Of a stretch of 32,904 nt of DNA, positions 14,237 to 31,203 are shown piece after piece; the first letter of the stretch is position 1, and the number at the start of each line of letters is the position of its first letter. The notes under the pieces were generated by a model. The model made no database searches and had not been told where the DNA came from. It saw only the letters and a list, made by a program, of their open reading frames with translations. Origin of the DNA: a virus (lineage: Duplodnaviria; Heunggongvirae; Uroviricota; Caudoviricetes); IMG/VR virus record IMGVR_UViG_2778261269_000003, positions 1 through 32,904 of that record; one strand, written 5' to 3'. The position numbers and the translations under genes were made by a program.

Positions 14237-14665
14237 ATGGCTAAAGACGGAAAACACGTAATTCACGCCGGTGGCATATTCCCTAACCCGCTGCTCAACC
14301 GTGAAGGCCGCGCCACCGCGGTCAAACCCGGCACCCTGGGCTTCTTCGATGCTGGCGTCTTCAAGGCGTCGGTAGATGGTAGCGAGACAGCGATTATCTA
14401 TGTCGCTGACTTCGATTATCTGCGCTGCAAAACGGTGGACGACACCTTTGCAGTAGATGATCTGTTGGTTGGCATCCATCCCTTGCCTGGCATGTTCCTG
14501 AACGTACGTGCTGCTGCCGGGACCTATAAAAAAGGCGACGCTCTCTCAATCGTCAACGGCCAGGTGAAGAAGTGGTCCACTGGCGAATCAGATCGCTGCT
14601 ATTGCGACGAAGAGCGCTCAATCACCGCCGCTGCTGGCGATCTCATTCGCGTAGTGATTAAGTAA
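14237..14665 (+). CDS. Putative head decoration-like structural protein (DUF2190-like)
   Basis: 142 aa gene between protease/scaffold and major capsid; GGAG RBS. Confidence 0.5.
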   Translation: MAKDGKHVIHAGGIFPNPLLNREGRATAVKPGTLGFFDAGVFKASVDGSETAIIYVADFDYLRCKTVDDTFAVDDLLVGIHPLPGMFLNVRAAAGTYKKGDALSIVNGQVKKWSTGESDRCYCDEERSITAAAGDLIRVVIK

Positions 14666-14676
14666 GGAGTCACTGA

Positions 14677-15771
14677 ATGCTTGTTTATTCTAAATCGCTG
14701 GGCGAAAAGACCGGCAACCTGGCCGTGAACCAGTACCAGTTTGGTATGCTGACACAGGAGCGTAATGCCGCACTGAACCATCAGGGCGTTAACGTCATGC
14801 AGGAAATGGCTGATCGCATTAATGCTATTAACCAGTTGAATGGCATCAACGCCGTGCGCTCACCTGCTGACCTGTACAAGGCCTTTGACCAGACCGTGCT
14901 GCGTCAATTCCAGCCGAACACTGAGTTCACACTGTTTAATGACCTGATGCCGCTGTCTCGTTCGGTACGCATCAATCAGACCGTGTACGAATACGCTAAG
15001 TCTGGCGGCCGCATGTGGGCCCACACCTCCATGTCTGGTCAGATTGGCGCGGCGCTGGATGCTGTGCAGTACCAGTACGACGGAACGATGGTTCCGGTGC
15101 ACGATACCGGCTTCAAGTTCCACTGGCGTGAGCCGCGCCTGAACAACCCGGACGCGTTCGACATCATCTCTGATGCTCAGTTCGAGTCCACCAACGAAGT
15201 TCGCCGCCAGTACGTGGATTACATCTACAACGGTTACCGCGACGCGGAAGGCAATTACATCAAGTTCGACGAGAAGACCTGGAAGGGCCTGAAGAACGAC
15301 GAGCGTGTGGCGATGGTTGACCTTGGCGCATCTGGCCTGAATATCGACTTCACCAGCGCGTCGGCGACCGCTGAGCAGATCCGCAATGCGGCAATCAAGC
15401 TGCGCGACACGCTCAAACTGACCAACAACCAGTACGCCGAGCAGACCTGGTATGTGTCGAGCGCCATCATTTCTAACCTTGAGCGCTACTTCAGCGACAA
15501 CTACCAGTCTGACACCATCTTGCAGGAGCTTCTGAAGTTGTCCGGTATTTCCGCGATTAAAGAAGATGCTCAACTGACCGGCAACCAGATCCTGATCGTT
15601 CCGCTGACTGCTGGTGTGATTGCACCGATTGTAGGCCAGGCGTTTGGCACCGTTGCCGATCCGCGTCCTTTCTACAATAGCGATTACATCTGGCGCACCT
15701 GGGGCGCGGCTGGCCTGATGGTTAAGACCGACATCAACAGCAAGAAATCTGTCATCTACGCACACAGCTAA
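14677..15771 (+). CDS. Major capsid protein
   Basis: 364 aa, AAGGAG RBS, position after scaffold and decoration genes; resembles lambda-E-like capsid family by eye. Confidence 0.78.
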   Translation: MLVYSKSLGEKTGNLAVNQYQFGMLTQERNAALNHQGVNVMQEMADRINAINQLNGINAVRSPADLYKAFDQTVLRQFQPNTEFTLFNDLMPLSRSVRINQTVYEYAKSGGRMWAHTSMSGQIGAALDAVQYQYDGTMVPVHDTGFKFHWREPRLNNPDAFDIISDAQFESTNEVRRQYVDYIYNGYRDAEGNYIKFDEKTWKGLKNDERVAMVDLGASGLNIDFTSASATAEQIRNAAIKLRDTLKLTNNQYAEQTWYVSSAIISNLERYFSDNYQSDTILQELLKLSGISAIKEDAQLTGNQILIVPLTAGVIAPIVGQAFGTVADPRPFYNSDYIWRTWGAAGLMVKTDINSKKSVIYAHS

Positions 15772-15780
15772 GGGGTAAAC

Positions 15781-16158
15781 ATGGCACTGGTAGAAATCAT
15801 TACAGACAATCTGTATGCCGGTGCCAACCTCCGCAAACTGGAGGTTGGTGCGGTTGTTGAGGTGGACGATGCAACAGCAGCGCGCTGGAAAGCGACCGGT
15901 AAAGCGAAAGACACTGACAAAAAGAAGGGTGAAAAACTCTTCGGCGAGTCAGTACCGGCAGCATCACAGCATAGCGATTTGCTCGAGCAGCTGACGGCGG
16001 TGACGAAGGAGCGTGATGAATCTCTGGAGCAGGTGGCTAAACTCACTGACCAGGCTGCAGCTGAAAAAGCCACATTCGATGAGCAGCTGGCGGCGGTGAC
16101 GAAGCGCGCTGAAGAGGCTGAAGCCGCCTTGGCTGAAGCTACCAAGAAGGCGAAATAA
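15781..16158 (+). CDS. Hypothetical coiled-coil structural protein with internal repeat
   Basis: 125 aa; repeats EQLTAVTKER / EQLAAVTKRAE encoded by near-identical 24-nt stretches at 15976-16006 and 16081-16110. Confidence 0.5.
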   Translation: MALVEIITDNLYAGANLRKLEVGAVVEVDDATAARWKATGKAKDTDKKKGEKLFGESVPAASQHSDLLEQLTAVTKERDESLEQVAKLTDQAAAEKATFDEQLAAVTKRAEEAEAALAEATKKAK

Positions 16159-16160
16159 CC

Positions 16161-16541
16161 ATGGCTGACCCAATCACAGCGGCAGACGTGCAGTCGTTCC
16201 TCGGTGAATTGGGTTACTCCATCCCGGGCGCGCTGCTGGAGCCGATCCTCTGCGTGGTGAATAAGATTATCCCTTGCCTCGATGGCGCTGGGTATGACGA
16301 CTGCACCGCGAAGCTGATCCTGATGTATGCCGCCGCGCTTATGGCTACGTCGTCCGGCGCTCGCCGCATCAAATCGCAGGGTGCGCCGTCTGGCGCGTCC
16401 CGCTCGTTTGAATATGGCGACGACAGCATTACCTGGCTGCGCGACTCGCTGGCGAAACTCGATACCAGCGGCTGCACCAATGAGCTACCAATCAGCGCCG
16501 GTAACAGTGTGGGCCTGTTCATGGTGGTTGGAGGCTGCTGA
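16161..16541 (+). CDS. Putative head-tail connector / adaptor protein
   Basis: 126 aa ORF immediately after the capsid-associated gene; assignment by position only. Confidence 0.4.
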   Translation: MADPITAADVQSFLGELGYSIPGALLEPILCVVNKIIPCLDGAGYDDCTAKLILMYAAALMATSSGARRIKSQGAPSGASRSFEYGDDSITWLRDSLAKLDTSGCTNELPISAGNSVGLFMVVGGC

Positions 16542-16714
16542 TGTCGTGGATATCCGTTAGCGTCAGGCTTCCGCGCTCGTTCACGCGCGTATGGGTGATG
16601 ACCGACACCGGGCGGGAGACAACTGGCTACGTTAAATCGGACGGTGAGTGGTTCATCAATTGCCCGCGCATCCGGGCGATTGGTGCCGTGGTACTGCGCT
16701 GGAAGGAGGGCTGA
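16541..16714 (+). CDS. Small phage protein (tentatively DUF551-like)
   Basis: 57 aa ORF ATGA-coupled at both ends (16541 and 16714); translation MSWISVSVRLPRSFTRVWVMTDTG...GEWFINCP; not in the ORF track because under 60 aa. Confidence 0.35.
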   Translation: MSWISVSVRLPRSFTRVWVMTDTGRETTGYVKSDGEWFINCPRIRAIGAVVLRWKEG

Positions 16715-17070
16715 TGTCGTCTACTGCTTCATGGTCCTACAACAAGCCATGCACGATATGGCGTAAGGGGGCGGGCGGTAATGATGAGTTTGGCGATCCT
16801 GTCGAACCATATGAACCGCCTGAAACCATCATGTGCGACTACATCGGCGGCCTGTCTGCAAAGCTCGGCTCCATCGGTAAAGAGGTTGTAGTAAAAAACA
16901 CCTTCTTCACAGCTTACGCTCTGGCGGATGAGGGCGATTACATCCTGATTGGTGTTAGCGCTGAGCTGGACCCGGTCGTGGCCGGTGCCGATGAGGTGCG
17001 CCACGTTACCCGCTGGAACGACACGCTCGACGGCCTGGAAGATGACTGGGCGATAATTACGGGAGTGTAG
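16714..17070 (+). CDS. Putative head closure / head-tail joining protein
   Basis: ATG 16714 preceded by AAGGAGG; 118 aa; position between connector and tail completion genes. Confidence 0.45.
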   Translation: MSSTASWSYNKPCTIWRKGAGGNDEFGDPVEPYEPPETIMCDYIGGLSAKLGSIGKEVVVKNTFFTAYALADEGDYILIGVSAELDPVVAGADEVRHVTRWNDTLDGLEDDWAIITGV

Positions 17071-28671: not shown

Positions 28672-29751
28672 TTAATTGTAAGGGGTTTCTCTTTCCATTT
28701 CTAAAACTATGGCTCTGAAATTTCTATTAAACTCATAACCAGGTTTATTATGTAACTCTGCATTTATGCAGTCTCCTAGAAGAGAACTTCTGATTCTAGC
28801 ACCATACCCATTGGTATGATAAGCAGAGTCCATAAATAATTTTCCTCCAAGATTAGACGCGCTTGGTGCGCAAATAACGTTAATACCAGCAACAGAAAGC
28901 AAACCCTTAAGTTTCATTAACGACTGCATGGTTTGTCCATTATCAGTGTCAAACCCCGGATTTCGCATCGTAACAGGCCATGTAATAAATAATTTCCCAC
29001 CTTTATTAGAAACAAAATTATTTATTTCCTTGAGTGTTGTATATGTATGTTCAGATATTTTAGGAATGTCTGAGTTATATGTAAATGTGCCATTATACAC
29101 AGAATCGTAAACAGTTTTACCGTCAATAAAAACATTGATGTCACCGTTTTTATTTAGACTTTTATAACTGTACCCATTATATTCACCATTGGTAGAGTTA
29201 AGATGATTGATGACATCACTCAACGGTGAAACCAGGCCTTTATCTTCAGCATTAAATCCTTCAACTAACCTTTTGGGGCTAACATTCATCATGAACTTTA
29301 TACGGTTATAAATGTTGATGCTTGATAGGTAATCCTGGCCCCACCCCAATATATTATTAACAAACCAATCAGTTGGTGCTTCCGTACGTGTGTAGTACTC
29401 ATACTCAAGCGGCATTACAACGATATCACCATTTTTAAAATGCTTTTTTAATTGATAAAAATGATAGTTTATATCTAGCTCTGCATGCGTTGCAATATTT
29501 ACAACTGGAAGTGATGTTTTATGGGAAATAATTTCACTATTTATAGAAAATAAGCTATTCGACCCGCTAGAGATTATTATTTTTTTCCCATTTATCCTGT
29601 CAGCGGCAACGCCTTTAAAATCAATTACGTTCTTTAGCCACCACTCACCTACAACCTGCTTTCCTTCCTGCATTTTGAAAGCATAAATAAACGTCCCAGC
29701 GGCAAATGCAAGTATTGCTAAGAATATAGAGAAGCTGAATTTATAATTCAC
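28672..29751 (-). CDS. DltD/AlgJ-like membrane-anchored partner protein of MBOAT acyltransferase
   Basis: 359 aa with N-terminal TM anchor, C-terminal FMDSAYHTNGYG resembling the DltD/AlgJ D..H..G.G motif; GTG start 9 nt after MBOAT stop with AAGGG RBS. Confidence 0.55.
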   Translation of the reverse strand: MNYKFSFSIFLAILAFAAGTFIYAFKMQEGKQVVGEWWLKNVIDFKGVAADRINGKKIIISSGSNSLFSINSEIISHKTSLPVVNIATHAELDINYHFYQLKKHFKNGDIVVMPLEYEYYTRTEAPTDWFVNNILGWGQDYLSSINIYNRIKFMMNVSPKRLVEGFNAEDKGLVSPLSDVINHLNSTNGEYNGYSYKSLNKNGDINVFIDGKTVYDSVYNGTFTYNSDIPKISEHTYTTLKEINNFVSNKGGKLFITWPVTMRNPGFDTDNGQTMQSLMKLKGLLSVAGINVICAPSASNLGGKLFMDSAYHTNGYGARIRSSLLGDCINAELHNKPGYEFNRNFRAIVLEMERETPYN

Positions 29752-29760
29752 TGTTCGCCC

Positions 29761-31203
29761 TTAAAAATTGAAGTAAATAAAGGATCCGGGAGCCGCCCCA
29801 CCCAAGGAAGCAGTCACTGCAATGCAAACGCCAAAGGCACACAGGCATGGAGCAAGCAGATTCCACGCTATACCACTCTTATGTTCTTTGGTCATCTCCA
29901 TGAAAACATTAGAATTTACATTAATTAAGCACGTCATAATGGCAATGGCGCAAACAGCTATCATATAGAAACCACCTTTCGATGCCTCATAGAGGAATGA
30001 GTCCGCAAAAGGTTGAGCATATTTAAATCCGGAAACCAAAGAATCGTAACCAGCAAACATTTTCTTTAGCAAACTAAAAGCATCATTTAAGTTATCTGTT
30101 CTGAAGAAAATCCAGGTGATATTCACGTAATTGAATGTTATAAACCAACCTACAACGCTCGGCATGCGAAAGCCATTTTGTGACCAATACCTGTGAATGA
30201 CAAGCCCAGCCCCGTGTAAAGCGCCCCACGCCAAAAAATTCCATCCAGCTCCATGCCAGAAACCGCCGATCAAAAACGTCAAAAACAGGTTTAGATATGT
30301 GCGTAATACACCATTTCGGTTTCCGCCAAGAGGAATGTAGACATAATTCCTGAGCCACGTGGAAAGGGTAATGTGCCAGCGTCTCCAGAAATCTTGAAGG
30401 TCTGTTGCTATGTATGGTGAATTGAAGTTGATAGGCAGCACAACGCCAAACAGAAGGGCCGAGCCAATCGCCATGTCAGTATATCCGGAGAAATCAAAGT
30501 ATAACTGGATACTGTATGAGAGGCTGGTTATCCATGCCTCCAAAGCACCAAGGGCTGAGATATTTGCATAACCTTGATCCGCTATAGAGCCAAAATATGA
30601 AGACAAGACAACTTTTTTGAATATTCCGACACTAAATATAAATACTGCGGGAACGAAATATTTCCCGAAATAATTATCCCTTGAGTTGAGTTGGTTTGTA
30701 ATTACATCATAATTTGTTATCGGGCCAGAGATGAGCTTAGGGAAAAACAAAATGTAGCAGCAATAATTTAATATTGAAATGTTAGATATCTGCTTTCTAT
30801 ACAAACTAACTGATAAAGAAATCTGCTGAAATGTATAGAAGCTTATGGCTAACGGCGCAATAACATTCATGTGGCCTATATTTAGGTTGAAAATACTAGA
30901 TATGTTACTTGCAAAGAAGTTGCAGTATTTAAAATAACCAAGAGATGCCACGTTAAATATAACTGATAATGCTACATATAATTTTGTCTTTTCAGATTTC
31001 ATCATTGTTAATATTGCGTAGTTTATCAGCATCGATATCAACAAAAGAGGCAAGAAATTAAATGTGAAAAAAGTATAGAAATACAGGCTAGCGCAACAAA
31101 TCCACACCTTGGAGAGAGCAATGTTAAATTTTTTCAGGAAAAGGAATATCAATACCACCAAAGGTAAAAACATTACAGAATATTCTAACGAGTTAAATAA
31201 CAT
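29761..31203 (-). CDS. MBOAT-family membrane-bound O-acyltransferase (AlgI/DltB/PatA-like)
   Basis: 480 aa polytopic membrane protein with the MBOAT His motif FWRRWHITLSTWLRNYVYIPLGGNR; very AT-rich. Confidence 0.8.
   Translation of the reverse strand: MLFNSLEYSVMFLPLVVLIFLFLKKFNIALSKVWICCASLYFYTFFTFNFLPLLLISMLINYAILTMMKSEKTKLYVALSVIFNVASLGYFKYCNFFASNISSIFNLNIGHMNVIAPLAISFYTFQQISLSVSLYRKQISNISILNYCCYILFFPKLISGPITNYDVITNQLNSRDNYFGKYFVPAVFIFSVGIFKKVVLSSYFGSIADQGYANISALGALEAWITSLSYSIQLYFDFSGYTDMAIGSALLFGVVLPINFNSPYIATDLQDFWRRWHITLSTWLRNYVYIPLGGNRNGVLRTYLNLFLTFLIGGFWHGAGWNFLAWGALHGAGLVIHRYWSQNGFRMPSVVGWFITFNYVNITWIFFRTDNLNDAFSLLKKMFAGYDSLVSGFKYAQPFADSFLYEASKGGFYMIAVCAIAIMTCLINVNSNVFMEMTKEHKSGIAWNLLAPCLCAFGVCIAVTASLGGAAPGSFIYFNF

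Follow-up and report, generated by a model that had tools for sequence, protein, structure and literature searches.

The 32,904-nucleotide (nt) record IMGVR_UViG_2778261269_000003 of IMG/VR, from a virus of the class Caudoviricetes, was analysed over its full length (hereafter the window). Directly after the major capsid gene it carries a gene (15781..16158, + strand, stop codon included) for a small head-module protein of 125 amino acids (aa), identified by its open reading frame (ORF), its translation and a match to PHROG 25242. Two near-identical 24-nt direct repeats lie within this gene. Our analysis indicates that this repeat pair very probably drives the gain and loss of one whole unit at a time in the helical part of the protein, giving alleles of 93, 125 and 157 aa.

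The repeat pair and the length alleles of the gene

A repeat search of the window returned a direct-repeat family of 24 nt with copies at 15985..16008 and 16081..16104 (both on the + strand), which are identical at 23 of 24 bases and have the consensus GAGCAGCTG(A/G)CGGCGGTGACGAAG. Both 24-mers are in frame with the ORF at 15781-16158 (+): copy 1, GAGCAGCTGACGGCGGTGACGAAG, codes for EQLTAVTK at residues 69-76, and copy 2, GAGCAGCTGGCGGCGGTGACGAAG, codes for EQLAAVTK at residues 101-108. The preliminary description of this DNA had named two near-identical 24-nt strings coding for EQL(T/A)AVTK, and both are present as quoted. The distance of 105 bp that it gave between them has to be corrected, since the copies start 96 nt (exactly 32 codons) apart and have 72 nt in between. 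Codon shuffles of the gene (n = 2000) reached at most 20/24 in their best 24-nt window against the 23/24 observed, and no third copy was found in the 32.9-kb window at ≤3 mismatches, with 0 matches expected from whole-window shuffles; the two kinds of shuffle together rule out chance or low complexity as the origin of the 24-mers. Sequence identity drops sharply at either edge of the 24-mer, and the stretches that follow the eight shared codons are unrelated between the copies, with no sign there of an older, longer duplication. A tandem array was also considered for the window, where Tandem Repeats Finder reports none. The arrangement is a short dispersed direct-repeat pair that bounds a 96-nt unit, not a tandem array.

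The 96-nt (32-codon) unit at 15985..16080 (+) is absent from 93-aa alleles and tandemly doubled in 157-aa alleles in DNA alignments. Among the best 120 protein clusters, 118 were 125 aa long, one was 124 aa and one (P0001) was 157 aa; in the last, the unit EQLAAVTKERDESLEQVAKLTDQAAAEKATFD occurs exactly twice. The source of P0001 is locus L004 (NCBI GCA_044718675.1), a 98.5-kb contig with the same gene neighbourhood, in which Tandem Repeats Finder detected a tandem repeat of 96-nt period with 2.2 copies and 99% matches. Two IMG/VR loci, L013 and L014, code for 157 aa with a different unit (…EQLAKLTDLVAADKATFD) and three repeat copies, and their two 96-nt units are 100% identical to one another. 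Further 157-aa cluster members are P0276, which is RefSeq WP_155033499.1 (Enterobacter ludwigii, 468-kb contig), P0275 and P0280. The name 'small-conductance mechanosensitive channel' given by one source to P0275 (JGI/IMG, 157 aa, identical to the L013/L014 product) looks like coiled-coil noise, as does a faint precomputed Pfam match of P0001 to 'MIPOL1_C'. Taken together, the sources of this allele length are an NCBI genome contig, a RefSeq protein, five JGI/IMG contigs (L013 and L014 among them) and ENA. Because the units differ between lineages yet match within each genome, the three-copy alleles are exact 96-nt tandem duplications that arose recently and independently, in at least two events.

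The reciprocal product was predicted beforehand, and a 93-aa construct with one repeat copy was used as query on a large protein collection. Three 93-aa proteins (P0121, P0122 and P0123) matched the predicted construct over its full length at 96-98% identity. Each derives from a separate sample (two Logan assemblies of sequencing runs and one ENA metagenome), and all three genes sit between the capsid and DUF7370 genes. In the DNA alignment exactly 96 nt are missing and a single 24-mer is left, and the contigs differ mutually by several single-nucleotide polymorphisms (SNPs) in and around the gene. Recombination between the copies had been put forward in the preliminary description as a source of length variation, to be refuted if the repeat proved unconserved and the homologues constant in length. 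Instead, the exact products expected from copy-copy exchange were found in the form of 93-aa one-copy and 157-aa three-copy alleles, and homologues of 125 and 126 aa retain the two copies 96 nt apart as far down as about 75% identity.

The repeat also lies where homology to other genomes begins. Complete E. coli genomes contained the 121-aa allele type only, and in 8 of the 24 matching complete E. coli genomes the DNA is homologous to the window only from about 16083 onwards, which is where repeat copy 2 starts. The repeat region apparently coincides with a mosaic boundary, the conserved module being the C-terminal end of the repeat-bearing gene and the DUF7370 gene.

Members of the wider family carry repeats of their own. 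An exhaustive search of 1.84 billion cluster representatives yielded 27 family clusters of 59-134 aa, all of which share the N-domain at residue 1. Behind the N-domain come a charged linker and the motif FEVATP, then a helical segment that is optional and ranges in length from 0 to about 65 residues, and finally a basic KK(A/G/D)K terminus. The 132/133-aa forms have ALEQLK(Q/T)A twice, 21 residues apart, with the DNA identical at 22-24 of 24 positions at 63-nt spacing, and synonymous variants are again common to both copies. The 115/121-aa forms have AEEAEAA twice, 18 residues (54 nt) apart. These repeats are near-perfect over about 24 nt, as in L069 (1730-1754 and 1793-1817) and in L064 and L065 (genes starting at 1501). 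P0147 contains EKKRADEAVDALAAL twice, 32 residues apart, and P0135 contains AELEEKNAQ twice, 28 residues apart. With a 132-aa homologue as query, 80 loci were obtained; the product of one of them, the IMG/VR allele L136, has 154 aa and so exceeds the 133-aa alleles by exactly one unit, and the gene carries a 63-nt tandem repeat (531-683; 2.4 copies, 100% identity) bounded by that lineage's own repeat. The same process of unit gain acts on a different repeat in this second lineage.

Concerted evolution of the copies and the origin of the alleles

Synonymous variants within the 24-mers are common to both copies in a genome and different between genomes. The paired variants are TTG…GCA in L006, L010 and L011, CTC in L017 and L018, CTC…ACC in L019-L023 and GCT GAG…ACA in L024. 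The two copies within a genome differ on average at 1.9 of 24 positions, as compared with 3.7-4.6 for orthologous copies across genomes, and the observed within-genome similarity was reached in 0 of 20000 permutations, in a test that ignores phylogeny. Lineage-specific codon usage was covered by a codon-pair control, limited to 17 genomes, in which the repeat positions were set against all of the gene's remaining polymorphic codon pairs that encode one and the same residue. The excess of identical codons was 0.47-0.53 at the Leu, Ala and Thr repeat pairs, against a mean of 0.006 (standard deviation 0.12, maximum 0.415) for the 219 control pairs. Because this excess is far above that of the control pairs, the copies appear to interact, through gene conversion or through cycles of expansion and contraction, as far as tests that are not phylogeny-aware can tell.

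Misaligned exchange between the 24-mers very probably adds or drops exactly one 96-nt unit, creating no new junction peptide, and the same copy-copy interaction very probably keeps both 24-mers alike. The exchange could take the route of replication slippage or of unequal homologous exchange between sister or co-infecting genomes, and the data fit both. The phage carries recombination genes, NinB/Orf and RusA, and RecA-type exchange becomes efficient from a length of about 24 bp. Since the junctions lie within identical sequence, every local context of a product pre-exists in the parent, which would explain why the products stay open reading frames and persist. Since an alpha-helix rises by 1.5 Å per residue, one step would alter the predicted helix by about 32 residues, or roughly 4.8 nm, and would leave the N-domain and the conserved C-terminal end (TKRAEEAEAALAEATKKAK) untouched. 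As both protein ends stay intact and some family members are without the helix, the helix may be a dispensable spacer of adjustable length.

Besides the neglect of phylogeny in the permutation test, several observations weigh against exchange between the 24-mers as the driver of length change. Length variants were found in 2 of 20 complete IMG/VR loci of the 96-nt repeat type and in none of 18 metagenome loci, of which about six were of that type. I25 and P64 are common to all three 93-aa alleles, which may descend from a single deletion. The 93-aa alleles are known solely from short-read metagenome or SRA assemblies, and a degenerate deletion-junction pattern was absent from scans of genome contigs and of viral contigs in IMG/VR. 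Each added 32-residue unit would, in addition, put a stutter into a continuous coiled coil. The rarity of length variants suggests that turnover is slow or that the variants are mildly deleterious, and it argues for a low switching rate rather than for contingency or phase-variable behaviour.

We considered whether the repeat could be kept solely since EQLAAVTK is needed twice in the protein, as two binding sites or as coiled-coil core segments, with the DNA identity as a by-product. Homologues that are 75-98% identical have the peptide conserved in both places, its L and V/T fit core positions in both heptad registers, and the majority of alleles remain 125 or 126 aa long. However, the third-position variants (CTG/CTC/TTG, GCG/GCA and ACG/ACC/ACA) co-vary between the copies far above the control same-residue pairs. 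Moreover, the one-unit gain and loss alleles are exact with breakpoints inside the repeat, and the motif, or even the entire helix, is absent from many members of the family. A double need for the peptide is largely refuted as the sole explanation, and we regard it as improbable.

It is less probable still that the 93- and 157-aa alleles are assembly artefacts, produced by collapse or expansion of the repeat, and that the gene has one true length. All three 93-aa sequences come from short-read Logan or ENA assemblies and the junction-pattern scans of genome contigs and IMG/VR gave no deletion junction, both of which would suit such an artefact. On the other hand, the 93-aa contigs originate from different samples and pipelines and carry SNP differences in and around the gene, and the 24-nt repeat is shorter than the k of 31 used for Logan contigs. 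Assemblers rarely make perfect tandem duplications, yet the 157-aa alleles come from several sources with two different unit sequences.

It is likewise very improbable that the 24-mers are cis-acting nucleic-acid elements within the coding region (a pair of protein-binding sites, an RNA structure or a packaging signal), for although two sharply bounded 24-mers at fixed spacing with DNA-level identity kept within genomes could be taken for such elements, their sequence varies across lineages while remaining paired inside each, other lineages have unrelated repeats at 63- and 54-nt spacings, one- and three-copy alleles persist, the window holds no extra copies, no Rfam family matches within 15500-16500, and no inverted repeat lies inside the repeat-bearing gene, the single pair found spanning 15875-16238 and extending into the next gene.

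Exchange between the 24-mers would place the gene beside known size-variable coiled-coil proteins with in-frame intragenic repeats, such as the streptococcal M protein, in which alpha-helical, heptad-patterned, in-frame repeats recombine to give whole-unit alleles with homogenised repeats. The phage genes show the same features, namely whole-unit alleles (93/125/157 aa with a 96-nt unit; 133/154 aa with a 63-nt unit), breakpoints in the repeats and homogenised copies. Unlike the M protein, the phage protein has two short dispersed 24-nt copies bounding 96 nt and no long tandem array, its variants are rare, it is small and belongs to the head module, and there is no indication of immune or surface selection. 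Phage tape measure proteins tolerate in-frame internal duplications and deletions, which change tail length. The protein described here is similarly a helical phage morphogenesis protein that tolerates in-frame gain and loss of units; however, the readout of tape measure proteins is tail length, whereas the present helix is not known to measure any structure.

Repeat-mediated, unit-wise length polymorphism and concerted evolution are well known in coiled coils, and the example in an uncharacterised phage family is new. It is a clean natural one, with a 24-nt pair, exact in-frame gain and loss, homogeneous repeats and one-, two- and three-copy states all seen. The protein is widespread yet unstudied, being encoded beside the capsid gene in prophages of Enterobacter, Klebsiella, E. 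coli and Salmonella. Annotation and typing should take account of this gene, since its length varies among prophages that are nearly identical elsewhere. The protein evidently tolerates both the loss of the helical segment and changes in its length, so that insertions or displayed peptides could be placed there.

Predicted architecture and possible function of the protein

The gene had been described beforehand as coding for a coiled coil, and structure prediction supports this. AlphaFold2 was run on alignment A2, made up of the window protein and 24 relatives, and gave a mean predicted local distance difference test (pLDDT) score of 86. Residues 1-52 (15781..15936, +) are predicted to form a small beta-rich N-domain with pLDDT 83-91, consisting of strands 2-6, 11-13, 18-20, 25-28 and 42-44 and a helix at 30-38, and this is the segment conserved in 27 of the 27 family representatives. 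A low-confidence linker at residues 53-61 (15937..15963, +) was delimited by pLDDT, which is about 60 at residues 51-60, 71 at 61-70 and <50 at 57-59, and by the family alignment, in which most relatives have the FEVATP motif at the linker. Residues 62-124 (15964..16152, +) are predicted to form one long alpha-helix that contains both repeat copies. This helix is uninterrupted at pLDDT 93-95 and was recovered both with the alignment and in a single-sequence run. Its hydrophobicity power is highest at a period of 3.5 residues (p = 0.001 versus shuffles), which is a coiled-coil signature. The 32-residue shift between the copies equals four heptads plus 4, and the motif leucine would shift from the 'd' to the 'a' core position between them, where L..VT could serve both registers.

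The product of lambda FI acts in packaging as a chaperone, forming a bridge between procapsid and terminase-DNA complex. We tentatively suggest, without much confidence, that the 125-aa protein is a functional analogue of lambda gpFI (PF14000; PDB 2LSM), that is, a small capsid-binding domain on a helical arm that would aid the meeting of procapsid and terminase-DNA. Its gene occupies the slot of lambda FI, directly past the capsid gene and ahead of the head-completion genes, and this slot is kept in relatives. The two proteins are similar in size (132 aa for gpFI versus 125 aa), and both have a globular domain and a helical segment connected via a variable linker. By hhalign, family residues 2-43 (window 15784-15909) align with the head-binding domain of gpFI at 87-130, over 42 columns and with 31% identity. 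Popovic et al. 2012, as cited in PMC4493119, related gpFI to MCP3 of TP901-1 and proposed that a frameshift at the capsid gene's 3' end links MCP3 to the capsid protein. Close gpFI homologues (P0154-P0273, 86-99% identical) were mostly 128-136 aa long, and the few outliers of 141-225 aa may be fusions or miscalled starts.

Other results weigh against a gpFI-like role. The hhalign match, although suggestive in its position, is weak, with P ~0.02-0.03 and a probability of ~2% against a single gpFI and against 115 gpFI sequences, and with P 0.026 and a probability of 1.9% for the family alignment against the gpFI alignment, the retrieved gpFI homologues being too alike (86-99% identical) for a deep profile. 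PF14000 (Packaging_FI) matched 0 of the 25 members of alignment A2 at an expectation value (E) ≤ 0.01. Foldseek against the PDB returned nothing significant, with 2LSM outside the top 50 and YqbF (2hjq) at E 1.1. Compared with gpFI the two domains stand in the opposite order, the globular one coming first. Furthermore, the capsid module here is TW1/Sf11-like and not lambda-like.

Alternatively, though this too is doubtful, the protein could belong to the virion, as a fibre on the capsid surface or as an auxiliary decoration, with the N-domain on the capsid and the helix as a projecting oligomeric coiled coil, so that changes in helix length would alter surface reach. The gene lies within the head module between capsid and connector genes, the product combines a small globular domain with a long helix of heptad periodicity, and relatives differ strongly and in a modular way in the helical part, a pattern often seen in exposed regions. 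However, a dedicated decoration protein is already encoded for the capsid, and there is no structural match to known decoration or fibre proteins. In addition, virion mass spectrometry of Sf11 and AAS23 does not list the product of the capsid-adjacent gene (PMC12724387; PMC8004638), these being distant phages in which the counterpart is assigned by position only.

If the protein is gpFI-like, the natural series of 0, 31, 63 and 95 helical residues would be a ready-made test of tether length in procapsid-terminase docking. There is also a slim chance that the ~24-nt repeats are maintained as an evolvability device, which would retune the tether of a gpFI-like packaging helper upon capsid or terminase partner swaps in mosaic phages. 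The helical tether would then join the capsid-binding domain to the conserved basic C-terminal end, and at least three lineages would have their own pair (at 96, 63 and 54 nt), two of which would give steps of 32 or 21 residues.

Family assignment and genome setting

Over residues 1-125 the protein matches PHROG 25242 (phrog_25242) at positions 1-121 of its 121-position profile (E 3.1e-34), and its first 41 residues match PHROG 2288 (E 3e-08). The match to Pfam DUF7302 (PF23976) covers residues 19-49 with 19.6 bits and E 0.0012, and lies below the gathering threshold of 24.9 bits; 11 of 25 members of the family alignment match DUF7302 at E ≤ 0.01, the best at 4.4e-06. The protein is apparently a distant relative of DUF7302, not a member by the curated cut-off. 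DUF7302, PHROG 25242 and PHROG 2288 are families of uncharacterised small phage proteins and carry no functional information. NCBIfam profiles gave no match to the 125-aa protein, sequence searches of the PDB with the single sequence and with the family profile returned weak coiled-coil noise alone, DUF7302 was not mentioned in the literature searched, and searches for YqbF gave nothing useful.

A Shine-Dalgarno-like AAGGGG (15770..15775, +) stands 5 nt ahead of the ATG at 15781 and shares bases with the capsid gene's stop codon. Across 14 orthologues, 56 of 82 variable sites are third codon positions in the + frame. A mirror ORF of 125 codons on the minus strand (15768-16145) was rejected as a coding sequence, as it is interrupted in L007 and L011 and the substitutions track the + frame.

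Upstream, the repeat-bearing gene adjoins the major capsid protein gene (14677..15771, +), which encodes a DUF6260 protein of TW1/Sf11-like HK97 fold (PF19774, E 1.1e-113) and is preceded by a head decoration protein gene (14237..14665, +; phrog_766 'head decoration', E 3.2e-58). The PDB relatives of the capsid protein are 5wk1 (E 1.5e-21) and 9ocb (E 3.2e-20), from phage TW1 and from the major capsid protein of Shigella phage Sf11, respectively (PMC12724387). Downstream, the DUF7370 gene (16161..16541, +; PF24085, E 6.9e-42) starts 2 nt past the stop of the repeat-bearing gene and is its downstream neighbour in all relatives examined. Phages of Klebsiella, Enterobacter, Erwinia and Hafnia, and prophage contigs as well, share the order decoration, capsid, repeat-bearing gene and DUF7370.

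The virus is a lambdoid temperate siphophage of Enterobacteriaceae. It encodes O/P-like replication proteins, NinB/Orf, a methyltransferase, RusA and Q, and the window further encodes lysis genes, both terminase subunits, the portal, a head-morphogenesis protein, a DUF2213 protein, the decoration protein and the DUF6260 capsid protein. After the capsid gene come the repeat-bearing gene, DUF7370, neck and tail-terminator genes, the major tail protein, the tape measure, and tail-tip and fibre genes.

Three further observations concern the annotation of the window. The 57-aa gene at 16541-16714 (+) has a homologue in two Klebsiella phage records labelled '50S ribosomal protein L13', probably in error. 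The GTG-start ORF at 16648-17070 (+) is probably over-extended, as its PHROG 797 match begins at residue 23, which points to the ATG at 16714 as the start. Two large minus-strand ORFs that lie beyond the tail-fibre gene, at 28672-29751 (359 aa) and 29761-31203 (480 aa), had no PHROG match at E ≤ 1e-5 and may be prophage cargo, such as moron or defence genes.

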